64,000 nt of DNA, from assembly GCA_937903135.1 (NCBI GenBank), contig CALDAH010000028.1, positions 2,474 to 66,473 of the forward strand, written 5' to 3'. Positions within the stretch are counted from its first letter, which is position 1; every line of letters starts with the position of its first letter. The position numbers and the translations under genes were made by a program. This DNA is from an uncultured Alphaproteobacteria bacterium (GTDB lineage: Bacteria; Pseudomonadota; Alphaproteobacteria; Rs-D84). The notes under the pieces are model-generated. The model ran no database searches, had not been told where the DNA came from, and saw nothing but the letters and a program-made list of their open reading frames with translations. Below are positions 3,761-59,618 of the stretch, in pieces.

Positions 3761-5398
3761 ATGAACGATAAAGAAAAAGAAGTTTTAAGCAACGATACAG
3801 TCGAACGTCGCCCATCTGTTCCGACGGGGTTGGAAAATGCCGAAAGCAAAGATATTGTTGATTTTTTATTCGCTAACGGTAATCGGTTGCTGACCGCAAC
3901 CGGTGCCGAGATGGAACTGCCAAAGGATACGCAGGGGCTGATTGCATATTTTTCCGGCGGCGAGATTATTATATCACGAACACACCGTTATGACGGTCGT
4001 GTTTTAGCGTTTTTAGATTTGTTAGAAAAACGCGGACGGCCAATGCGCCGACCGTTTTATTCGGATTTAGGGCTGGTATCTAATATATATAAATTTTATG
4101 AATCGCGGGTCGGCGGATCTAATCGTTCACGATTGGATTACGATAACCAAATGCAAAAGGATTTTGTTGATATTATCGCCAAGGCCGCCGCACAGAAAGT
4201 ATCTGATATTCATATAGAGGTCGCAGATCAGACCACAATTTATTTCCGTATTGACGGCAGTATGCAACCGGTATTGGAATATAATTCCGGCTGGGGGGAA
4301 TCATTCGTTCGCGCGGCATTTGCATCCGCCGATATGTCAAATGCGAACTATGCCCAAAATGAATACCAGTCTGCACAAAAAGATGGTCGTACGCCCCTGC
4401 GCGGGACAAAGGATTTATATCTGCCCGCCGGGATTTTAAGTATTCGTATGCAGTTTAATCCGATCGCATTCGGCAGTCGTTATGTCGTTATGCGATTGTT
4501 GTATGATAACCCGTCCGAGGGGATTAAAACAGAACAGGAATTCGGTGAATACGAACAGCGTTTAATGATGCGCATGCGGGCATTCCCGACGGGACTGGTT
4601 ATTGTCGCCGGGCCGACGAGTTCTGGGAAATCAACAACGCTGGTTCGTAATATGTCGTTAATGCTAAAGGAACGTCATTACGAGATAAATATGATCACGG
4701 TGGAAAACCCCGTTGAGCAAAAAATTTTCGGCGCGCATCAGATGCCTGTTATTAATACAACCAGCGAAGAACAGCGCGACGAGGAATATACCGAGGCATT
4801 GGCCGCCGCGCTGCGCAGTGACCCTGATACTTTAATGGTCGGGGAAATTCGTACGCTGGCCGCCGCCCAATTAACCGTACGCGGTGCGTTATCCGGTCAT
4901 AACGTATGGACCACGCTGCATGCAAATTCAGCACTGGCCGCATTAACCCGTTTACTGGATATGGGGATAGAGGCATTTAAGCTAAAAGAAGAAACGCTAA
5001 TGCGTGGATTAATATCAATGCGGTTGTTTAAAAAGCTATGTCCGTATTGTCGTGAACGCTTAATTGATCATCCTGAAAACCCGGCGTATAATCGCGTCTT
5101 GGACGCGTTCGGTGAAATCGGCCTGCGCCAGGTATATATTCGCGGCGCCGGTTGTAACGAATGTAATGGGACGGGGACACTGGGCCGAATTAAAGCGGGC
5201 GAGATTATAATTACAAACAGTGAATTTTTAGGCCTGGCGCTATCTGGCGATACGGATGGTGCGGTAAAATACTGGCTGGAGGAAATGGATGGCCGAACGT
5301 TAAAAGAGGCCGCAATGGAATTAATGCTGCGTGGAATAATCGGTGTTGATGAATTAGAACGCTGGGTGGGATTACTGGACCGGCCGGGGGTATATTAA
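3761..5398 (+). CDS. GspE/PilB-family secretion ATPase (R64 PilQ-like)
   Basis: 545 aa with Walker A GPTSSGKSTT, Asp box/Walker B DPDTLMVGEIR, His box GHNVWTTLHAN, and a tetracysteine motif CPYC...CNEC. Confidence 0.85.
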   Translation: MNDKEKEVLSNDTVERRPSVPTGLENAESKDIVDFLFANGNRLLTATGAEMELPKDTQGLIAYFSGGEIIISRTHRYDGRVLAFLDLLEKRGRPMRRPFYSDLGLVSNIYKFYESRVGGSNRSRLDYDNQMQKDFVDIIAKAAAQKVSDIHIEVADQTTIYFRIDGSMQPVLEYNSGWGESFVRAAFASADMSNANYAQNEYQSAQKDGRTPLRGTKDLYLPAGILSIRMQFNPIAFGSRYVVMRLLYDNPSEGIKTEQEFGEYEQRLMMRMRAFPTGLVIVAGPTSSGKSTTLVRNMSLMLKERHYEINMITVENPVEQKIFGAHQMPVINTTSEEQRDEEYTEALAAALRSDPDTLMVGEIRTLAAAQLTVRGALSGHNVWTTLHANSALAALTRLLDMGIEAFKLKEETLMRGLISMRLFKKLCPYCRERLIDHPENPAYNRVLDAFGEIGLRQVYIRGAGCNECNGTGTLGRIKAGEIIITNSEFLGLALSGDTDGAVKYWLEEMDGRTLKEAAMELMLRGIIGVDELERWVGLLDRPGVY

Positions 5399-16080: not shown

Positions 16081-16154
16081 GCCCTAATAGTCTAGTGGTA
16101 AAACACGTCCTTGGTAAGGACGAGTCGCAAGTCCGATTCTTGCTTAGGGCACCA
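16081..16154 (+). tRNA. tRNA-Thr (GGT)
   Basis: 74-nt cloverleaf. The anticodon arm CGTCC-TTGGTAA-GGACG is near-identical to that of E. coli tRNA-Thr(GGU). Acceptor GCCCTAA/TTAGGGC, encoded CCA. The T loop reads TCCGATT (C at position 55), and the D stem has one C:A mismatch. Confidence 0.8.
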
Positions 16155-16204: not shown

Positions 16205-16906
16205 ATGAAACCAAAGATTATTATTCCCGCATGGGTGGATAACGGAAAAATAACACAGAGAATGTCATATGAAAATTCTGTGGTTAATGCCGGCGGTATT
16301 CCAATTTTATCATCACCGGAAAATACTAAGTTTATCTGTGGCCATCTAAAACCGGATGGGGTTTTACTCTGCGGTGGTATTTTTGATTTGCCGCCCGCGG
16401 CCTTGATACCGACCGGTTGCCCGATCAGGGCGTTGGATTTATCCAGATATAATCAGTATATTTATTTAATAAAATATGCAAAAAAAAATAAAATCCCACT
16501 GTTCGCTATATGCGCAGGGTTTGAAGTTATGGGGAATTTTTTAGGCGGCCGGGTTAAACGTATATCCGGGCATAAATCGGATGATTGCAATTTAATAACT
16601 AACCATTCGGTAGAGGTTATAGGGCCAAATAAATATATAAATAAACAAAGTTTTATTGTTAATTCAATTCACGGCGCGGGATTAGATTTAGCAGATTCTA
16701 AAAACATAGATGTTTTAGCCAAGGCGTCCGATGGCACAATAGAGGCAATAGCACCGCGAAAACCATGGGCTGATTTTGTATTGGCGGTTCAATGGCATCC
16801 GGAATTATTAGATAATAAATTGCAAAACGGTTTGTTTAAACAATTTATCCAATCGGCCGCGCGGGTCGCGGAAAATAACCGTGGGCGCTGTGATTCGGGC
16901 CGCTAA
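16205..16906 (+). CDS. class I glutamine amidotransferase / peptidase C26 (gamma-glutamyl hydrolase, PuuD-like)
   Basis: 233 aa. The nucleophile elbow PLFAICAGFEVMG and the VQWHPE His/Glu motif are present. Confidence 0.7.
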   Translation: MKPKIIIPAWVDNGKITQRMSYENSVVNAGGIPILSSPENTKFICGHLKPDGVLLCGGIFDLPPAALIPTGCPIRALDLSRYNQYIYLIKYAKKNKIPLFAICAGFEVMGNFLGGRVKRISGHKSDDCNLITNHSVEVIGPNKYINKQSFIVNSIHGAGLDLADSKNIDVLAKASDGTIEAIAPRKPWADFVLAVQWHPELLDNKLQNGLFKQFIQSAARVAENNRGRCDSGR

Positions 16907-16969
16907 AAATATTAAAATCATCGCGGATATATTTTATAAATTTATAAAAAATATGTTAATAGTTTATTC

Positions 16970-16998
16970 TTGAAATTCCGAAAATTCTTGTGTAAACT
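16970..16998 (+). promoter_or_regulatory. sigma70-type promoter of the aspS leader
   Basis: TTGAAA (16970-16975), 17-nt spacer, TAAACT (16993-16998). This predicts an untranslated leader of about 245 nt. Confidence 0.5.
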
Positions 16999-17004
16999 TG
17001 CGAA

Positions 17005-17248
17005 AGTGAAGTGGCTGTATGTGATTTAAATGCTGCAGCGGCGCGCATCAGAAATATGATTTAATATATTTTTGGGGAAAATTTTTTGGGCGCGAACGTA
17101 GTGATGTGATTGACAACCACGGAATGTTCAGAACCCGGTTATATAAGTTACAAGTCGGGGTGGCACCGCGCAAAATTGCGCCCCCGGTTATAAATTTACG
17201 GGTGCTGTTTAATAATCATAGTGCTCGGATAAAAACAAAGGGGCAGAT
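17005..17248 (+). promoter_or_regulatory. T-box-like tRNA-sensing leader (candidate Asp specifier) upstream of aspS
   Basis: GGGGUGGCACCGCG (17157-17170) matches the conserved T-box core GGUGGNACCGCG. 17156-17186 folds as helix CGGGG/CCCCG, a 7-nt bulge UGGCACC, and helix GCGC-AAAAUU-GCGC, which is the T-box antiterminator architecture. The leader's only GAC triplet (17112-17114) is followed by A. A weak alternative terminator pairs 17180-17186 with 17199-17205, followed by UGUUU. I could not delineate Stem I. Confidence 0.5.
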
Positions 17249-19003
17249 ATGTTATCACTGAAATCTAAATACAGAACGCATACATGCGGCGATTTAAACG
17301 CGGCAAATGTCGGGGAAAACGTTACGCTATCGGGTTGGGTACATCGTAAACGTGACCATGGGGCATTGCTGTTTATTGACCTGCGTGATAATTATGGAAT
17401 AACGCAGTGTGTTTTTGATGGCGGGGACGCGGAAATGGAAAAAATTCGCCCCGAGTCTGTTATTAAAATCACAGGAAAGGTTGTCGCCCGCGACGCAAGT
17501 GCCGTTAATGATAAAATACCGACCGGTGAAATTGAAATTCAGGCCACATCGTGCGAGGTGTTAACAAACGCAGACGTTTTGCCATTTCAGGTATTTGGCG
17601 ATGACGGTTCGGTATCAGAAGATTTGCGTTTAAAGTATCGCTATATTGATCTGCGTCGTGAAACACTGCATAAAAATATTTTATTCCGTAATCGCGTAAT
17701 GAAATTTTTACGTGATAAAATGTGGGATATGGGATTTTCAGAATTCCAGACACCGATACTTACCGTATCTAGTCCCGAGGGGGCGCGCGATTATATCGTT
17801 CCATCACGTCATCATCATGGAATGTTTTATGCATTGCCCCAGGCGCCACAGCAGTTTAAACAGTTAATTCAAATATCCGGTTTTGATCGCTATTTTCAGA
17901 TCGCACCGTGTTTTCGTGACGAAGATTTACGTGCCGATCGTTTGCTGGAATTTTACCAGTTGGATCTGGAAATGTCGTTTGTTGATCTGCCCGATATTCA
18001 GGCGGTCGGGGACGAATTAATACCGGCATTAATTCGTGAATTTGTACCCGATGCAAAAATCGCAGATGAAATCCCGCATATCCCGTTCGAGGAAGCAATG
18101 CTAAAATACGGATGTGATAAACCGGACCTGCGTAATCCGATTATTATATCCGATGTAACGGATGTTTTCCGTGGATCAGATTTCGCGATATTTGCAAATG
18201 CAATTGAAAACGGTGCGGTTGTTCGTGCAATACCTGCGCCGAATTCGGCCGATAAACCACGCAGCTGGTTTGATAAATTGGGTGACTATGCGGTCAAAGA
18301 ACTAGGGCTTGGCGGTCTGGGATATATTATTTTCGCGGACGAGCCAAAAGGCCCGGTCGCCAAGAAATTGGATGCGGCGCGCATCGCGGCACTGCGTGAA
18401 ATTGCCGGGGATAATTCGTCGTTATTCTTTGTATGTGATACGGCCGCGAATGCCGCCAAGGCTGCCGGGAAACTGCGCATTAAGCTTGGTGATGATTTAG
18501 GCTTAATTGATCCAAAGGAATTTCGTTTATGCTGGATTGAAGATTTCCCGATGTATGAATTAAACGAAGAAACCGGTGCGATTGATTTTGGTCACAACCC
18601 GTTTAGTTTGCCAAAGGGCGAACTGGATGGCGACCCGTTACAGATTAAGGCGAATCAGTTTGATATGGTATTAAACGGGGCCGAGATCTGCAGTGGCGGG
18701 CTGCGTAACTATAACCCTGAAACCATGGTAAAAGCGTTTGCGATTGCAGGATATGGCGAAGAGGTTGTAAAGCAAAAATTCGGCGGAATGTATGCAGCGT
18801 TTCAATACGGCGCGCCGCCGCACGGCGGATGTGCATTCGGAATTGACCGATTAATCCAGATTATGCTGGGTGAACAAAACCTGCGCGAGGTTGTTTTGTT
18901 CCCGACCAATCAGCGCGGCCAGGATTTAATGCTCGGCGCCCCGCGTGAGGTTACAGAACAGCAGCTGCGCGAGGTTCATATACAGGTTCGCAAAAAGAAC
19001 TAA
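17249..19003 (+). CDS. aspS: aspartate--tRNA ligase
   Basis: 584 aa: YRTHTCGDL...VTLSGWVHRKRDHGALLFIDLRDNYGITQ (OB fold), class II motifs FRDEDLRADR and GGLRNY..., GAPPHGGCAFGIDRL. Confidence 0.95.
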   Translation: MLSLKSKYRTHTCGDLNAANVGENVTLSGWVHRKRDHGALLFIDLRDNYGITQCVFDGGDAEMEKIRPESVIKITGKVVARDASAVNDKIPTGEIEIQATSCEVLTNADVLPFQVFGDDGSVSEDLRLKYRYIDLRRETLHKNILFRNRVMKFLRDKMWDMGFSEFQTPILTVSSPEGARDYIVPSRHHHGMFYALPQAPQQFKQLIQISGFDRYFQIAPCFRDEDLRADRLLEFYQLDLEMSFVDLPDIQAVGDELIPALIREFVPDAKIADEIPHIPFEEAMLKYGCDKPDLRNPIIISDVTDVFRGSDFAIFANAIENGAVVRAIPAPNSADKPRSWFDKLGDYAVKELGLGGLGYIIFADEPKGPVAKKLDAARIAALREIAGDNSSLFFVCDTAANAAKAAGKLRIKLGDDLGLIDPKEFRLCWIEDFPMYELNEETGAIDFGHNPFSLPKGELDGDPLQIKANQFDMVLNGAEICSGGLRNYNPETMVKAFAIAGYGEEVVKQKFGGMYAAFQYGAPPHGGCAFGIDRLIQIMLGEQNLREVVLFPTNQRGQDLMLGAPREVTEQQLREVHIQVRKKN

Positions 19004-19021
19004 GATCGCGATCGCAGTTAA

Positions 19022-19055
19022 ATCACCCGCATGTTCTGCGGGTGATTTTATTTTT
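19022..19055 (+). terminator. Rho-independent terminator after aspS
   Basis: ATCACCCGC-(7 nt)-GCGGGTGAT followed by TTTATTTTT. Confidence 0.8.
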
Positions 19056-19128
19056 ACCACGATAAGAGAAATCATACCTATTACAACTAATTTTTTCCCA
19101 TGTATAATTTATACAAAGGATGTGGGGT

Positions 19129-19491: not shown

Positions 19492-21969
19492 TTAAAACTT
19501 TGTATGATTTTTTATAAACTCGCGCATATATGCCGGGTCAAAGTTTATCATAATCTCGGATAATGAATATTCACGACCGGTGCTGGAAATGTTAAGTTGT
19601 ATCGGCGCAGGTGCAGGCGACGTCCCGCGCAGAATAATATCTGTCGCGACTGTCATTTCACCGTCTGTAATCGCCATTATTCCCGTGGCATCAACGTGAC
19701 GAAGTTGTAATTCAAACGGGGATGTTGTTATAAAATTACCGTTTTCATATCGGCCGATGATATGCAGTTTCTTTAGCATACTTTGCCCGCCGCGCAATGC
19801 ATCGGATAATGCGTATTCGGCATTTAGGGTGGTTATTTTATCCGCCGCGGCATAAAATTCATCAAATCCGATGCCGGATATATATCCGCCTTGGAATGTA
19901 ATATCTGCGTCGCCGGCTAAATTATATTTAATATCATGTGCGATTTTACCGGATGTTGTCATGTTTATTTCTGCCGTAATACTGCTGTCGCTAATATTTA
20001 TTGGCATATCCGGTTTTAGCAGATAACCGTTTATTGCAAACTTATTTAATTGAACAGATATATTATATTTATTTTTAACCTTTTCTATGATCGCCAGCAT
20101 ATTCCCGCGGGAACTGTCGGAAATTGAAAACGTCTGGGTATTAGGTTTTAAAGAATATATAAAATTACCGTATTCGTCCCCGTTATATATAACCCGTGAC
20201 GCCGATAATGAAATATTTGCATTTAAATCAAACGGCAGCATAACCGGCGACATAGTTAAAAATTCCATTTCGGCATAATTATCCAGGTATTCCTGGTTAA
20301 CAAACGCATCCAGGTTAAATAGATCTGTATGCAGGGTAATCTGATCCCCGGATATGTTGCCGGTAAATTCTTGGCCCGCGATATTAATTGTTAAATCAGA
20401 TACGTTTTTACTGCTATATGTTCCCGATATGGTATATTCCAGATTGTTTAATAAACGGGTGTCAATATTGGATGCCCAGTCTTTTATATTTTTCCCACGG
20501 ATATAAAAGCGATTATTTTCAGATACAAATGACCAGTTCCCGGAATGTGGTATAAACGTTAAACTGTTCGCATTCCATGAAAAATTCCCGATATCATTTA
20601 GCATAGTTTTAGGCAGAAACCAAATATCCGGTGCGATATCGTGTATGGTTTTATCATTGGCAAATGTAAACGATGCACGTGTTTTTTTATCATCCGGGGC
20701 GATATCAAATGTCCCGCCGATATCTGAAAATTGAAAATTTACACGGCCGGATTTACCTAATCTTTTCAGATGTTTTTTTATTTCCCCTGCATCCGGCATT
20801 GGTTGGTCGGATTGAATAAATATCTCGAATATATCATCCGTGACGGATATGCTGCCGGTATACGGGCCGTATGTAAAATCACTGCATTTCCAATCGTTCG
20901 GGCGACCCGATAGTATGCACGTGGCATTAGTTCCGTTATATGGCATATTTATCATTATATTATGCGCGCCGTTTTTATCAATTGTACCGCCGGTAATCGC
21001 GATATCATCCGCGATAATATTGGTAATCTGCAGTTCATCGTGCGTTCCGATCGCATTAATTTTTAGGTGTTTAAAATCAAAGTCTGCAAATTTAAGGTCG
21101 CCATAAAAATCCAGGTTAAAGCTGGTTTTATGAAAAATCCGGCTGGGGTTTAGCAGGAATGAAAAATCATAATCCATGTTATCGGATGATAATTGAATTA
21201 CTTTATCGCCGTTTGGTAACAGCTTAATATTTCCGGCAAAGTCATTCGCAACGATATTTGTAAAATCAAATCCATAAGCGCCGTCCCAGTCAAAGTTCAT
21301 AGACAGTGACACGGTTTGATTAATCACCGGTTCGGTGAATTCAAACCACTGATTAATATTATCGGTTATAATTGACATATGCCCGCGGGCACTGCCGTCC
21401 GCATATAGTTGCCCGGTAATGTTTAGGTTATTATTTCTGTTTTTAATATGAAAATCACCGTTGTCATAGTCTATGTCATACCGGTGTTGGTTTGTGCGAA
21501 CAATTCCGGAAAATTTTCCCTGCGAAACGGTTGCGCGGACAATCTCATAGTCTTTGTCCATAAACCGGGCGATGCTGTTGTTTATAGATATTTTGCTTGG
21601 GAAATTCTGTGGCTCAAGGCTTGTTATATTAATCTTTGCCCCATAAACACTGATTTGCCCGGATAGCTTTGCCCGATCAATATTAAACATATCGTGCAAC
21701 GGTATTGTAAACATTACAGCACGCGCATTGGCATCCATAACGGATACGTTATGTGCAACAATTGTTGCACGGCCGAGCAGACTAAAGTGAATATCCCCAT
21801 GAATCTGGGCCGCCATACCGGTCTGATCGGCGATTGCATGTTCAATTTTAGGCTTTAAACGATTTAAATTAATCATTGGCGGGATAAAAATAATTGCCAT
21901 AAAAATCCCGGCCAGCAATATAACAGCGGACCATAAAAATATACGTTTATTTTTAGGGTTTAATACCAT
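19492..21969 (-). CDS. AsmA-family outer-membrane biogenesis protein
   Basis: 825 aa. An N-terminal membrane anchor (IFLWSAVILLAGIFMAIIFI) is followed by LKPKIEHAIADQTGMAAQIHGDIHFSLLGRATIVAHNV, typical of AsmA N-termini, then a long beta-rich body. Confidence 0.65.
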   Translation of the reverse strand: MVLNPKNKRIFLWSAVILLAGIFMAIIFIPPMINLNRLKPKIEHAIADQTGMAAQIHGDIHFSLLGRATIVAHNVSVMDANARAVMFTIPLHDMFNIDRAKLSGQISVYGAKINITSLEPQNFPSKISINNSIARFMDKDYEIVRATVSQGKFSGIVRTNQHRYDIDYDNGDFHIKNRNNNLNITGQLYADGSARGHMSIITDNINQWFEFTEPVINQTVSLSMNFDWDGAYGFDFTNIVANDFAGNIKLLPNGDKVIQLSSDNMDYDFSFLLNPSRIFHKTSFNLDFYGDLKFADFDFKHLKINAIGTHDELQITNIIADDIAITGGTIDKNGAHNIMINMPYNGTNATCILSGRPNDWKCSDFTYGPYTGSISVTDDIFEIFIQSDQPMPDAGEIKKHLKRLGKSGRVNFQFSDIGGTFDIAPDDKKTRASFTFANDKTIHDIAPDIWFLPKTMLNDIGNFSWNANSLTFIPHSGNWSFVSENNRFYIRGKNIKDWASNIDTRLLNNLEYTISGTYSSKNVSDLTINIAGQEFTGNISGDQITLHTDLFNLDAFVNQEYLDNYAEMEFLTMSPVMLPFDLNANISLSASRVIYNGDEYGNFIYSLKPNTQTFSISDSSRGNMLAIIEKVKNKYNISVQLNKFAINGYLLKPDMPINISDSSITAEINMTTSGKIAHDIKYNLAGDADITFQGGYISGIGFDEFYAAADKITTLNAEYALSDALRGGQSMLKKLHIIGRYENGNFITTSPFELQLRHVDATGIMAITDGEMTVATDIILRGTSPAPAPIQLNISSTGREYSLSEIMINFDPAYMREFIKNHTKF

Positions 21970-29318: not shown

Positions 29319-30572
29319 ATGTTTTCTAAACTAGAACGTAAAATTGCATTCAGATATATGTGGGCGAAAAAACGCGGGTTTGGTTCTGTGATCTCGTGGG
29401 TGTCGCTAATTGGCATAATGCTAGGGGTCGCGACGCTGATCGTCGTTATGTCGGTTATGGGGGGATTTCATGATACGCTGCTGTCGCGTATTGTCGGGAT
29501 GAACGGTCACGTGGTTGTATATCACCAGGATGGCGCGATTACCGATTATGATTTCTTGGTTGATAAAATGCGGCAAAACAAGGTCGTCGCCGCGAACGCG
29601 GTTGGAATTGTTCCGATCGCCGAAGGGCAGGTTATGGTAACCGCCAACGGGAATAATTCCGGTGCAATGATCCGTGGTATTCGTATGCCGGATTTAATTG
29701 CAAAAACACACGCCGGAACACGTATTTACGGTAAATCATTGGATAAAATATCCGACGGGGAATTGGTTGCCGGCAACAGCTTAAACCGCGCGCTTGGCGT
29801 TACGATGGGGGATAAGGTTTCACTTGTATCGGCAAATGGTGCAACGCCAACGCCATTTGGGACTATGCCGCGAATAATGTCATATCCGGTTATGTCGTCG
29901 TTTTTTATGGGCATGTATGAATATGATTCCGGGTATATATTTATGCCCCTTGAAACGGCCCAGAAATATTTAAATATCGGAAATGCCGTAACGCATATTG
30001 ATATATTTTTAAAAGACCCCGAGGATACAACCGCCGTTCGCGATGCATTGTCGCGTTTGTTGCCGGACGGGTTTGTTGTCCGTGATTGGCGGGATTTAAA
30101 CAGTGGCTTTGTCGGCGCGCTGCAGGTTGAATCTAATGTTATGTTTTTAATATTAATGTTAATTGTAATCGTTGCTGCGTTTAATATCGTATCGTCGCTG
30201 GTTATGTTGGTGAAAGATAAATCAAAAGATATCGCCGTTCTGCGAACGTTCGGGGTATCACGTCGTTCAATGATGAAAATATTCATTTTATCGGGAACAA
30301 GTATCGGCGCAATCGGGGCATTTTTCGGGACTGTATTCGGCGTATTGATCGCGATATATATTGAACCAATCCGTCGCGCGGTTCAGGTAATAACCGGCCG
30401 TGATTTATTCCCTGCGGAATTATATTATTTATCGGAATTACCGTCAAAGCTAATTCCGACAACAGTTATTGGCATTGCATTACTCGCGATATTACTATCG
30501 TTTCTGGCAACGCTTTACCCCGCATGGAAAGCGGCAAATACCGACCCCGTTGATGTGCTGCGAAATGAATAA
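29319..30572 (+). CDS. lolC: lipoprotein-releasing system permease LolC/LolE family
   Basis: 417 aa with N-terminus FRYMWAKKRGFGSVISWVSLIGIMLGVATLIVVMSVMGGF, a periplasmic MacB-like domain, and a C-terminal FtsX 3-TM domain. Confidence 0.85.
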   Translation: MFSKLERKIAFRYMWAKKRGFGSVISWVSLIGIMLGVATLIVVMSVMGGFHDTLLSRIVGMNGHVVVYHQDGAITDYDFLVDKMRQNKVVAANAVGIVPIAEGQVMVTANGNNSGAMIRGIRMPDLIAKTHAGTRIYGKSLDKISDGELVAGNSLNRALGVTMGDKVSLVSANGATPTPFGTMPRIMSYPVMSSFFMGMYEYDSGYIFMPLETAQKYLNIGNAVTHIDIFLKDPEDTTAVRDALSRLLPDGFVVRDWRDLNSGFVGALQVESNVMFLILMLIVIVAAFNIVSSLVMLVKDKSKDIAVLRTFGVSRRSMMKIFILSGTSIGAIGAFFGTVFGVLIAIYIEPIRRAVQVITGRDLFPAELYYLSELPSKLIPTTVIGIALLAILLSFLATLYPAWKAANTDPVDVLRNE

Positions 30573-42697: not shown

Positions 42698-43996
42698 TTA
42701 TTTCCCCAGGCACAGTTGTGAAAACGTTGCGTCCATAACATCTGCTGCGGTTATTGTCCCCAGTATTTTACCGATACTATCGGCGGCGCGACGAACGTGT
42801 TCGGCAAATATATCATAGTTATCGCCTGCGTTATTTATCGCCGCGCCCAGATCGCAGGCGGCCGATTCTAATAATGATTTTGTTCGTGCGTTTACAACAA
42901 CGCCGTGATCCGCACCGGATATTTTATCTGATATTTTACTGCGAATTGTATTTAGTAATTTGTCCATCCCGTCCCCGGTTTTTGCCGATACCAGTATCGC
43001 GTCCGGGATATTCGGTCGGGTTATATCAGATTTATTAATAACCAAGATTTCGTTTTTATAAACGGTTGAATTGTTCAGTCCGTCGGCACTTTTTACATGA
43101 ATTATTATATCGGCGTTTTCTATCTCGGTCCGGGTTTTGGCGATCCCGATTTTTTCAATATCGTTATCTGTATCGCGTATACCGGCCGTATCAGATAGGT
43201 TTACCAGATATCCGTCAATATCCAATGTGGCATTAACAACATCACGCGTTGTCCCGGGCGTATCCGATACAATCGCACGGTTCGTCCCGGCCAGGTAATT
43301 AAATATGGATGATTTTCCGACGTTTGTTTCCCCCGCCAACGTAATGTTCAATCCCGCCTGTACGGCGCGCACCGCCCCATAGCGCGCGAGGGCATCGTTT
43401 ATCTCGTTATATAAATTTTCAGTGCGCTGATGGATTGTTTTGCCGATATTCGCGGGCAGGTCATTCGCATCATAATCCAGGATTGCCGCCGCATAGGCCG
43501 ATATTTCAATCATCTGATTGCGCCAGTTTTGATATGTTTCGCTGTCGCGCCCCATCATGGATTTTAGCGCAAATGCACGCTGTCGGTCGGTTTGCGCATC
43601 CAGCAGCGCCGCCAGGCCGTCAATATCGGATAAATCCATTTTATTATTATAAAACGCACGTTTTGAAAACTCGCCAGGCAGTGCCATACGCATGTTATTC
43701 TGGGATAAAAATGAAAATATTTTTTCAATAACGGCCCGCGCCCCGTGGCAATGAATTTCTATGACATCTTCGCCCGTAAATGATGCCGGGCCGACGAAAT
43801 ATATAATAACGCATTGGTCAATAATATCACCATTCCGGTCGGCAAGGTTTGTAAAATACGCATGCCGCGGTGTGATCGCCGGGCGGCGTATAAACGCCTG
43901 GGCCGTATTTTTTAAATCTGTTCCGGATATGCGGATAACCGCAACGCCGGATTTCCCATGCCCAGATGATAGGGCAAATATAGTATCGTTATTCAT
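42698..43996 (-). CDS. mnmE: tRNA modification GTPase MnmE
   Basis: 432 aa: DTIFALSSGHGKSGVAVIRISG, G domain GETNVGKSSIFN / DTAGIR / NKSD, and a C-terminal CLGK. Confidence 0.92.
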   Translation of the reverse strand: MNNDTIFALSSGHGKSGVAVIRISGTDLKNTAQAFIRRPAITPRHAYFTNLADRNGDIIDQCVIIYFVGPASFTGEDVIEIHCHGARAVIEKIFSFLSQNNMRMALPGEFSKRAFYNNKMDLSDIDGLAALLDAQTDRQRAFALKSMMGRDSETYQNWRNQMIEISAYAAAILDYDANDLPANIGKTIHQRTENLYNEINDALARYGAVRAVQAGLNITLAGETNVGKSSIFNYLAGTNRAIVSDTPGTTRDVVNATLDIDGYLVNLSDTAGIRDTDNDIEKIGIAKTRTEIENADIIIHVKSADGLNNSTVYKNEILVINKSDITRPNIPDAILVSAKTGDGMDKLLNTIRSKISDKISGADHGVVVNARTKSLLESAACDLGAAINNAGDNYDIFAEHVRRAADSIGKILGTITAADVMDATFSQLCLGK

Positions 43997-58340: not shown

Positions 58341-59618
58341 TTAATGCTTCCCGCCAATTTTGGTTCGTCCACCCATTAACGGTTGCAGCTTTTTCGGGAT
58401 ATTTACAGACCCGTCTGCGTTTTGGTGGTTTTCCAAAATCGGAACTAATGCACGTGGTACGGCGATCCCTGTGTTATTCAGCGTCGCACAGAAACGCATT
58501 GAACCGTCCGCTGCGCGATAGCGGGTGTTCGTTCGGCGTGCCTGGAATTGACCAATAGATGAACAGCTGCCAAGTTCTTTATAGCTGTTTTCACTTGGCA
58601 CCCAGGCCTCGACATCATTCATCTTTACCTTATTAAATCCCATATCGCCCGTAGAGTTTGCAATAACGCGATAGGGCAGTTCAAAATCCGCGATTATATC
58701 GCAGAGGTTGTTTAGGATATGCTCGTGCATTTCATCGGATTGTTCCGGGGTGCAGAAAACATACTGTTCAACCTTATTAAACTGATGAAAGCGTGCCAGA
58801 CCGCGGGTATCGCGCCCGGCGGCGCCGGCCTCTTTGCGGAAACATGGGGAAAATCCTGCGTATTTTATCGGCAGATCTTTTTCATTTAATATTTCGCCCG
58901 AATGCAGTGAATTCAATATAATCTCGGCTGTGCCGGCCAGGCAGCGATCAGTCCCCGATAGCATAAATACATCGCCCGACATTACAGATAAATCCGATCC
59001 GATGAAATGCCCGGCGTCAAATATTGTCGCAGGTTTGGTAATTGACGGGCATTCAATAAATATAAAACCGTTCGCGATTAATTTTTGTATTACATATGTT
59101 TCAATCGCCAGCTGCAGTTCGGCCGCTTCGCCGATTAAGGCGTATGTGCGCGTCCCGCATAGCTTTGCGATTTTTTCCGGCGCCCACCATCCGTTCATAT
59201 CCAACAGATCCCACTGCGCGCGTGGGGTAAAATCAAATTTACGCGGTGTCCCTATGCGGCGAACTTCGGTATTAAAACTATCATCCGGGCCAATCGGTGC
59301 GTCGGCGGATGGAATCTGTGGGACGCGATGCATTAAATCGTTTAATTTATCCTCGGCTGTGGACAGCTCGGCCAGGTCGGCGGCAATCTCTGCGCCGATT
59401 TCCTTTGATCGTGCAATTAGCGGTGCTTTGTCGGTTGCGGTTGGAATTTCACGGGTAATTTTATTCTTTTCCGCGGTCATATTCTGCGTAATTGTTTTTA
59501 ATTCACGAACACGGGCGTCGAGTTCTAAGATCTCGTCGGTCGGGTCGGCAAACCCTTTAACCCGGCAGGCGTTTTTAACAATATCTGGGTTTTCACGAAT
59601 AAATTTTATATCCAGCAT
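58341..59618 (-). CDS. serS: serine--tRNA ligase
   Basis: 425 aa: MLDIKFIRENPD, an N-terminal coiled coil, and class II motifs FSPCFRKEAGAAGRDTRGLARFHQFNKVE and GIAVPRALVPILENHQNADGSVNIP. Confidence 0.95.
   Translation of the reverse strand: MLDIKFIRENPDIVKNACRVKGFADPTDEILELDARVRELKTITQNMTAEKNKITREIPTATDKAPLIARSKEIGAEIAADLAELSTAEDKLNDLMHRVPQIPSADAPIGPDDSFNTEVRRIGTPRKFDFTPRAQWDLLDMNGWWAPEKIAKLCGTRTYALIGEAAELQLAIETYVIQKLIANGFIFIECPSITKPATIFDAGHFIGSDLSVMSGDVFMLSGTDRCLAGTAEIILNSLHSGEILNEKDLPIKYAGFSPCFRKEAGAAGRDTRGLARFHQFNKVEQYVFCTPEQSDEMHEHILNNLCDIIADFELPYRVIANSTGDMGFNKVKMNDVEAWVPSENSYKELGSCSSIGQFQARRTNTRYRAADGSMRFCATLNNTGIAVPRALVPILENHQNADGSVNIPKKLQPLMGGRTKIGGKH

Follow-up and report, generated by a model that had tools for sequence, protein, structure and literature searches.

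A candidate miniaturised T-box riboswitch in the aspS leader of an uncultured alphaproteobacterium and its relatives

Surveys place T-box riboswitches in Firmicutes, Actinobacteria, Chloroflexi and Deinococcus-Thermus and in the leuA leaders of Geobacter and Pelobacter (PMC3766115, PMC2494555), the latter being typical elements and the only proteobacterial ones recorded there. Among described designs, the translational ileS T-boxes of Actinobacteria present the specifier in the apical loop of an 'ultrashort' Stem I (6UFG, 6UFM; Sherwood, Grundy and Henkin 2015; PMC7583486) and keep the Stem II S-turn, the Stem IIA/B pseudoknot and Stem III. Here we analyse the leader of aspS, the gene for the aspartate--tRNA ligase (AspRS), in a 64,000-nucleotide (nt) stretch of contig CALDAH010000028.1 (GCA_937903135.1; uncultured Alphaproteobacteria bacterium, Rs-D84), referred to below as the window. 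A preliminary description of this DNA had proposed a tRNA-Asp-sensing T-box in front of aspS and had noted that none was known to be reported from Alphaproteobacteria; the surveys indeed contain no alphaproteobacterial T-box (PMC3766115, PMC2494555), and full-text literature searches returned no report of T-boxes in Alphaproteobacteria or in the Candidate Phyla Radiation (CPR)/Patescibacteria.

The aspS leader is very probably a miniaturised T-box riboswitch that senses uncharged tRNA-Asp (tRNA-Asn in a quarter of the related species), its output most likely being translational. Our confidence is high for the identity of the element as a T-box and only moderate for the switching pathway; tRNA binding and the pathway as a whole we infer from sequence comparison. 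The core of the earlier proposal, that an alphaproteobacterial aspS is preceded by a T-box predicted to sense tRNA-Asp, finds support in strong comparative evidence, in the match of the gene to NF001750 and in the placement of the host clade.

Architecture and covariation of the leader element

An AspRS query against one genome per species returned 80 loci (82-90% identity), all from gut or rumen metagenome-assembled genomes labelled Alphaproteobacteria, many of them as Candidatus Enterousia, which NCBI lists as Alphaproteobacteria incertae sedis. The GTDB order of Enterousia is Rs-D84, with genomes below 1 Mb that lack amino-acid biosynthesis (PMC12306168). The T-box 12-mer GGTGGCACCGCG (17159-17170), which lies within the longer core GGGGUGGCACCGCG (17157-17170) singled out in the preliminary description, occurs once in the 64-kb window and is found exactly in 80 of 80 relatives, 59-170 nt before the aspS start codon.

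The aligned leaders share a variable P2 helix of 5-6 base pairs (bp), a kink-turn (K-turn)-like motif, a 3-bp helix with a 7-nt loop, a linker of ~40 nt carrying a conserved AAGUUAUAAA box, and the T-box helix. The K-turn-like motif comprises a 3-nt bulge with an invariant final U and an invariant GA opposite GA; the G, A and A of the tandem G.A pairs never change, and the 3b/3n position varies without forming a Watson-Crick pair. For a covariation count the 19 pairs of four helices were written onto the leader alignment, the controls being partners slid by 1-3 columns. Standard pairs fill 95.8% of the cells as opposed to 35-55% in the slid controls, changes on both sides occur in 13 of the 19 pairs, and values this high appear in 0 of 500 shuffles. 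An independent RNAalifold prediction recovers all four helices and gives no conserved helix for the ~40-nt linker, hence no equivalent of Stem II, IIA/B or III, a pseudoknot being beyond the reach of these tools. The antiterminator fold that the preliminary description drew for 17156-17186 stands as described (A1 and the A2 extension covary), and comparison across the aspS leaders of relatives finds it conserved.

For Stem I the outcome is mixed. The canonical form is absent, as the preliminary description had feared, but a compact Stem I that bears the specifier is present and covaries. At its base a covarying C-stem, a 3-nt bulge and tandem G.A/A.G pairs give the sequence pattern of a K-turn (GA motif), from which a three-dimensional kink is predicted. 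About 50 relatives have a strong TTGCAA-N17-TAnAAT promoter whose end lies just 10-15 nt upstream of P2/Stem I, and in 18 others a tRNA-Thr gene abuts the compact Stem I, which argues against a hidden longer Stem I; judging from these boundaries, the ~100-nt element is the whole aptamer. The sole promoter candidate on the + strand of the intergenic region in the window (TTGAAA-17-TAAACT) lies ~80 nt farther upstream than the promoters of relatives and matches no better than shuffled sequence does (4 found against 3.0 expected). The promoter motif of the preliminary description is thus in place, but its function and the ~245-nt leader deduced from it are doubtful. Were this promoter real, the window leader would possess an extra 5' segment of ~85 nt (17005-17087), lacking in relatives, that includes a GC-rich palindromic stretch TGCTGCAGCGGCGCGCATCAG at ~17032-17052.

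The 5' end of Stem I has a further peculiarity. The box GGGCGC (17088-17093) is kept as GGGCGCG in ~20 of the 80 relatives, though P1 needs GGG only. The box is the perfect complement of the antiterminator 3' strand GCGCCC (17178-17183), with which it pairs in the single-sequence minimum-free-energy fold of the core, and it could represent a further alternative pairing or part of a 3x4 internal-loop motif (CGC/AGAA).

A covariance model built from the leader alignment of relatives picks out a single element in the window (80.9 bits) and a single element in each related locus, in every case the aspS leader; it found no further copies in the window, including upstream of serS, or in the 80 loci. 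The features of the locus are collected in Table 1.

Table 1. Coordinates of the aspS leader element and associated features in the window
Feature	Position	Strand	Basis or remarks
Sigma-70-like promoter candidate TTGAAA-17-TAAACT (weak)	16970-16998	+	9/12 match to consensus
Compact Stem I, whole	17088-17136	+	alignment; covariation of P2 and 3-bp stem
P1 GGG/CCC	17088-17090 / 17134-17136	+	internal loop CGC/AGAA above
P2 (C-stem) GAACGU/AUGUUC	17094-17099 / 17124-17129	+	covaries
K-turn-like motif	bulge AGU 17100-17102; tandem G.A pairs, GA 17103-17104 / GA 17122-17123	+	sequence pattern
3-bp stem GUG/CAC	17106-17108 / 17118-17120	+	covaries
Apical loop	17109-17117	+	caps 3-bp stem
Specifier GAC (Asp codon)	17112-17114	+	in 7-nt anticodon-loop-like loop UUGACAA (17110-17116), then purine A17115
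Linker with conserved AAGUUAyAAr box	17137-17155	+	alignment conservation; no helix by RNAalifold
T-box antiterminator-type (antisequestrator) element	17156-17186	+	12-mer invariance, covariation, RF00230 alignment
Helix A1 CGGGG/CCCCG	17156-17160 / 17182-17186	+	covaries
7-nt bulge UGGCACC	17161-17167	+	invariant across relatives
Helix A2 GCGC(A)/(U)GCGC	17168-17172 / 17177-17181	+	A2 extension covaries
Middle hairpin	17199-17227	+	5' arm CGGGUGCUGU (17199-17208); 3' arm AUAGUGCUCG (17218-17227), candidate anti-Shine-Dalgarno
Shine-Dalgarno region AAAGGGGC	17237-17244	+	5 nt before ATG; read from sequence
aspS, bacterial-type aspartate--tRNA ligase, 584 aa	17249-19003	+	NCBIfam NF001750, 746 bits (cut-off 443)
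Intrinsic terminator after aspS, canonical	19020-19058	+	12-bp stem and T-tract

Specifier loop and predicted tRNA match

Between 17005 and 17248 the triplet GAC occurs a single time, with A following it, and the preliminary description had put it forward as the specifier. The alignment bears this out, since the triplet occupies the anticodon-like site of a conserved, covarying hairpin loop (7-nt consensus (C/U)(U/C)-(GAC or AAC)-(A/G)-A) and alternates only with the Asn codon AAC. GAC is present in 60 and AAC in 20 of the 80 leaders, usually with U before it, and the base after it is a purine in all 80 (A in 72, G in 8). GAC and AAC are exactly the codons of the two tRNAs charged by a non-discriminating AspRS, and no match came from scanning metagenomes for this design with a middle specifier base other than A.

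In many leaders the triplet that follows the specifier is the second AspRS-related codon (GAC-AAC in 46, AAC-GAC in 4), with AAC-AAC in 13 and GAC-GAC in 1; mixed tandems thus occupy 50 of the 80 specifier loops. By analogy with a clostridial two-codon T-box, such tandems might point to a single leader that senses both Asp and Asn. The clostridial element, the 'NT-box' of Clostridium acetobutylicum said to have been described by Saad et al. in 2013, reportedly controls the tRNA-dependent asparagine pathway and has a full-length Firmicute architecture.

At the other end of the tRNA, the variable base of the T-box bulge is C in every leader, which predicts G73, the discriminator of bacterial tRNA-Asp. 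The tRNA-Asn(GUU) encoded on an Enterousia-type contig (L117) has G73-CCA, with the anticodon loop CUGUUAA.

Expression platform and competing explanations

No terminator-like site was found in 16600-17500, although the genome has canonical terminators elsewhere, and control is therefore probably not by transcription attenuation. The terminator after aspS, which makes the gene monocistronic, shows that standard terminators are in use in this genome. Output in the lineage of the window is probably translational, to judge from the leader sequences.

A stable hairpin stands between the T-box and the Shine-Dalgarno (SD) sequence in 71 of 79 leaders, generally with no U-tract after it. Its 5' arm holds a near-invariant GGUGC(C/U)(G/A) box (GGUGCY, 71/79 leaders; 17201-17206 in the window) that is the exact complement of the whole 7-nt bulge UGGCACC, and by virtue of this complementarity the box carries GCC(A/G), which mimics the 3' end of tRNA. 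The box is also able to pair with the antiterminator 3' strand GCGCCC, the partner site of the terminator in the low-GC group X described below. The 3' arm varies together with the SD (UCGCC/GGCGA, ACACC/GGUGU and, in the window, UGCUC/GGGCA), and cognate 3'-arm:SD duplexes average -6.87 kcal/mol against -5.86 kcal/mol for non-cognate ones, with 0 of 5000 permutations as favourable. In the window the SD can form duplexes of -6.9 kcal/mol with the 3' arm and of -11.7 kcal/mol with the A1 3' strand CCCC. Four short forms (L101, L195, L035, L149), the most divergent of the alphaproteobacterial leaders, have no relay hairpin, and their GGUGCC or GGUGUC box is the ribosome-binding site itself; the unconstrained minimum-free-energy fold of these leaders pairs the box with the bulge, with an advantage of 1.0-4.8 kcal/mol over the antiterminator fold.

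Some leaders have palindromic insertions between the middle hairpin and the SD (~65 nt in L021 and L050; ~30 nt in L025 and L029), for example ATCCCCCTTCGCC...GGCTTCGGGGGAT and ATCCCACTTCGC...TTTGTGGGAC, which look like small mobile or repeat elements and leave the T-box intact.

In the pathway that we propose, the loop on the K-turn-like motif and 3-bp helix would display GAC for pairing with the tRNA anticodon GUC, and UGGC, the first four bulge bases ~40 nt downstream, would pair with the free 3' end G73-C-C-A of the uncharged tRNA. Without bound tRNA, the bulge or the 3' strand of the helix would pair with the GGUGCY box, and with the box so engaged, either the 3' arm of the middle hairpin or the CCCC strand would be released and would cover the SD. 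Binding of uncharged tRNA would lock the T-box helix and leave the GGUGCY box to close the middle hairpin, so that the ribosome-binding site would open and more AspRS would be made. The tRNA 3' end and a box encoded in cis would accordingly compete for the bulge, with the long forms relaying the signal to the SD by a hairpin. This putative long-form relay has covariation in its favour but gains no support from the thermodynamic calculations.

Several observations weigh against a tRNA-sensing T-box with this pathway. A permissive RF00230 search of 16900-17300 (401 nt) yields 25.8 bits (E = 6e-4), far from the gathering score of 93, and in the alignment the antiterminator part alone has high posterior probability while the 5' part is low; this was the search by which the preliminary description proposed to check its claim, and we judge the comparative evidence to outweigh its result. 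There is no long Stem I, with no S-turn specifier internal loop, AG bulge or distal loop/tRNA-elbow platform, and a 7-9-nt apical loop in its place; the preliminary description had named the lack of such a stem, too, as a ground for refutation, and we take it to be outweighed in the same way. A short Stem I without Stem II is reported to bind tRNA poorly, the distal platform or Stem II being considered necessary (PMC7583486). A search for the tRNA-Asp gene found none in the window or in any of 200 loci scanned, only the tRNA-Asn on L117, and the shuffle and permutation statistics take no account of phylogenetic relatedness. The energetics are equivocal. When the antiterminator is imposed, the SD becomes more accessible in 22 leaders and less so in 21. 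Imposing the bulge:GGUGCY pairing costs a median of 2.5 kcal/mol relative to the antiterminator state, and it makes the SD less accessible in 32 of 71 leaders and more so in 20. Many leaders adopt the antiterminator as their minimum-free-energy fold with no tRNA present, and no obvious sequestrator is seen in the eight short forms whose SD is GGGACC. The unconstrained fold of the window leader opens A1, with CCCC paired to the SD GGGG and the 5' strand of the T-box to the first codons. Such pairing with the first codons (UGUUAUCAC) recurs in some minimum-free-energy folds, the one observation in its favour being UUA at codon 2 in 58 of 79 leaders, compared with 21 of 79 at codon 4.

Classical transcription attenuation offers a different account of the same T-box. 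All sequence features listed in the preliminary description are present, including the pairing of 17180-17186 with 17199-17205 followed by UGUUU, which it took for a weak terminator whose formation uncharged tRNA-Asp would prevent. Paired to the box at 17197-17208, the A2/A1 3' strand gives a duplex of -12.1 kcal/mol, the CPR-type elements have a real terminator at the homologous position, and a U-rich sequence follows the box in L003, L069, L076, L078 and L079. The candidate stem is, however, only 6-7 bp long, with a 10-25-nt loop and no U-tract, whereas the real terminators of the genome are long stems with T-tracts and none is recognised in 16600-17500. In most of the 71 long-form leaders GAAAA follows the box, which there serves as the 5' side of a stable hairpin of its own, and the eight short forms have no such box. 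The weak terminator of the preliminary description is not upheld by these comparisons, and we consider attenuation in the window improbable.

Two further explanations dispense with tRNA sensing. A horizontally acquired T-box might survive as a relic that no longer switches, its RNA structure being kept, for example, for mRNA stability or for tRNA-Thr-aspS processing; this would suit the many leaders in which the antiterminator is the predicted minimum-free-energy fold and might be constitutively 'on', and the 18 relatives in which tRNA-Thr abuts the element. It is very improbable nonetheless, given that the unpaired functional nucleotides (the bulge UGGCACC and the Asp/Asn specifier with its purine) are invariant while the flanks vary, and that the element persists across exchange of the type of aspS gene. 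A hairpin with a 7-nt anticodon-loop-like loop before an aminoacyl-tRNA synthetase gene also recalls a tRNA-like operator to which AspRS would bind, an autoregulatory mimic of the kind known from the E. coli thrS operator, or a leader bound by some other protein, for which the K-turn-like motif could recruit an L7Ae-type protein. The loop, however, displays a codon (GAC/AAC) and not the anticodon (GUC/GUU) that AspRS recognises, which argues against a mimic; the second conserved element complements the tRNA 3' end instead of imitating it, the 12-mer and helix topology match RF00230, and the CPR relatives have an antiterminator/terminator switch. We regard an operator of this kind as extremely improbable. 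The miniaturised, tRNA-sensing T-box remains our preferred explanation.

Genomic setting, distribution and relation to known T-boxes

The AspRS closest to that of the window outside the clade is 55% identical and belongs to Bradyrhizobium and other Pseudomonadota, and for this reason the enzyme looks natively alphaproteobacterial; a separate AspRS homolog search returned clade members only (at least 83% identity) and did not reach outgroups. Neither gatCAB nor asnS was among the 10 candidate window open reading frames (ORFs) scanned. One complete 716-kb chromosome (L035, OZ246409.1) labelled 'uncultured Muribaculaceae bacterium' has an Enterousia-type aspS (86% identity) with the same leader, and its taxonomic label is probably wrong.

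In the 18 relatives with an upstream tRNA-Thr(GGU) (including L003, L012, L015, L016, L020 and L024) the tRNA gene lies 6-56 nt 5' of the T-box, and co-transcription with aspS is likely. In the window the tRNA-Thr gene (16081-16154) is separated from the aspS leader by a 233-aa gene (16205-16906), class I glutamine-amidotransferase-like with a weak match to gamma-glutamyl-GABA hydrolase. Other genes of the window encode a GspE/PilB-type secretion ATPase (3761-5398, +), a LolCE lipoprotein-release permease (29319-30572, +), MnmE (42698-43996, -) and SerS (serS, 58341-59618, -), the last without a T-box-like leader; several large ORFs, such as one of 825 aa at 19492-21969 (-), have no NCBIfam match.

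The standard model is silent on this design, RF00230 at its gathering score (93 bits) finding no T-box anywhere in the window and no match in 15 representative loci of all groups. These groups, five in number, come from a second metagenome scan with a relaxed linker, which returned at least 120 loci. Among the matches listed are ~85 Enterousia-type leaders before AspRS 67-90% identical to that of the window, the low-GC group X, the high-GC group Y (L160, L107) and group Z, two Enterousia-like leaders (L174, L183) of the same design that precede an archaeal-type aspartate--tRNA(Asn) ligase rather than the bacterial-type enzyme. The enzymes downstream of group X leaders either group with Candidatus Parcubacteria/Paceibacteria proteins or belong to a short bacterial type of AspRS without the insertion domain. 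In other lineages the compact design stands before three different kinds of aspS. A further ~12 high-GC matches among those listed were set aside as chance, lying inside coding sequence without A1 and A2 (7 were tested and gave no model score).

With our covariance model, group X elements reach 50-70 bits and those of group Y 28-30 bits. In group X the antiterminator 3' strand doubles as the 5' side of a long hairpin with a U-run behind it, a textbook T-box antiterminator/terminator platform. This terminator, the model scores and the silence of Rfam together identify the compact Stem I as a feature of a class, with at least one branch on an unambiguous T-box platform. Group Y has an actinobacterial-style arrangement of anti-SD and SD, the anti-SD being on the A1 3' strand (CCACACCUCCC, SD GGAGGUGGG). 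CPR/Paceibacteria-like contigs with a compact aspS T-box and classical terminator (L089, L093, L104, L108, L126, L162, L187, L199, L200, L090) have a purine-rich 30-nt linker (GGUAGAAGAGGGAAGAAUGAGACCAAAGUAG), and their downstream start codons have no visible SD.

An evenly balanced proposition, in our estimate, is that all of these belong to one previously undescribed, minimal class of aspS T-box of ~100 nt (K-turn, apical specifier loop and T-box bulge helix, without elbow platform, Stem II or Stem III) that still senses tRNA. Such a class would span Alphaproteobacteria (Rs-D84/Enterousia), CPR/Patescibacteria and an actinobacteria-like lineage and would have a specifier that toggles between Asp and Asn; in its alphaproteobacterial branch the tRNA would compete for the bulge with a mimic of its own 3' end encoded in cis (GGUGCC-R, which in some species is also the ribosome-binding site).

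T-boxes are regarded as mainly Gram-positive, and an element present in every sampled genome of a reduced-genome gut lineage widens their distribution; the same compact design in CPR-like bacteria would extend the range further, to new phyla, and would mean that the standard Rfam model misses a whole subclass. The architecture challenges the view that a short Stem I needs Stem II for tRNA binding, and offers a ~100-nt minimal system for asking what suffices for tRNA recognition and charge sensing. The switching of Asp and Asn specifiers among close relatives amounts to a natural experiment on T-box specificity, linked to a putatively non-discriminating AspRS, and competition of a tRNA 3'-end mimic for the T-box bulge is a mechanism that the data suggest. 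Since Enterousia lack amino-acid biosynthesis (PMC12306168), the switch may be among the few direct sensors of nutrient status in these obligate symbionts.

Set beside the actinobacterial ileS type, the window element shares the specifier in an apical loop, the short Stem I above a K-turn (here predicted), the lack of a distal double-T-loop platform and, as proposed here, the T-box bulge helix as antisequestrator with output by masking of the SD; group Y follows the actinobacterial design. It differs in having no conserved helix between Stem I and the T-box (no Stem II S-turn domain by RNAalifold), in its Asp/Asn rather than Ile specificity and alphaproteobacterial host, and in the proposed anti-SD logic of a bulge-complementary GGUGCY box with a relay hairpin.

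With the Firmicutes leaders of RF00230, including the glyQS type without Stem II, it has in common the T-box sequence GGGUGGNACCGCG, the A1/7-nt bulge/A2 topology, a specifier codon followed by a purine, the K-turn pattern at the base of Stem I and an aminoacyl-tRNA synthetase target, and in the CPR-type members a standard terminator overlaps the antiterminator 3' strand. Unlike those leaders, the window element has no long Stem I, Stem III or terminator and scores far below the Rfam gathering score. Like the NT-box it would tie a T-box to a putatively non-discriminating AspRS and Asn-tRNA formation, with more than one codon in the specifier region (50 of 80 loops), but here the specifier switches between Asp and Asn from species to species and the architecture is compact. 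The deltaproteobacterial leuA T-boxes share with it a proteobacterial host, whereas the present element is a compact variant, stands before an aminoacyl-tRNA synthetase gene and belongs to Alphaproteobacteria. The shared T-box helix, specifier and purine, K-turn pattern and aminoacyl-tRNA synthetase target, taken with the missing elbow platform, Stem II/IIA/B, Stem III and Rfam threshold, mark the element as a variant of the T-box kind rather than a standard member.

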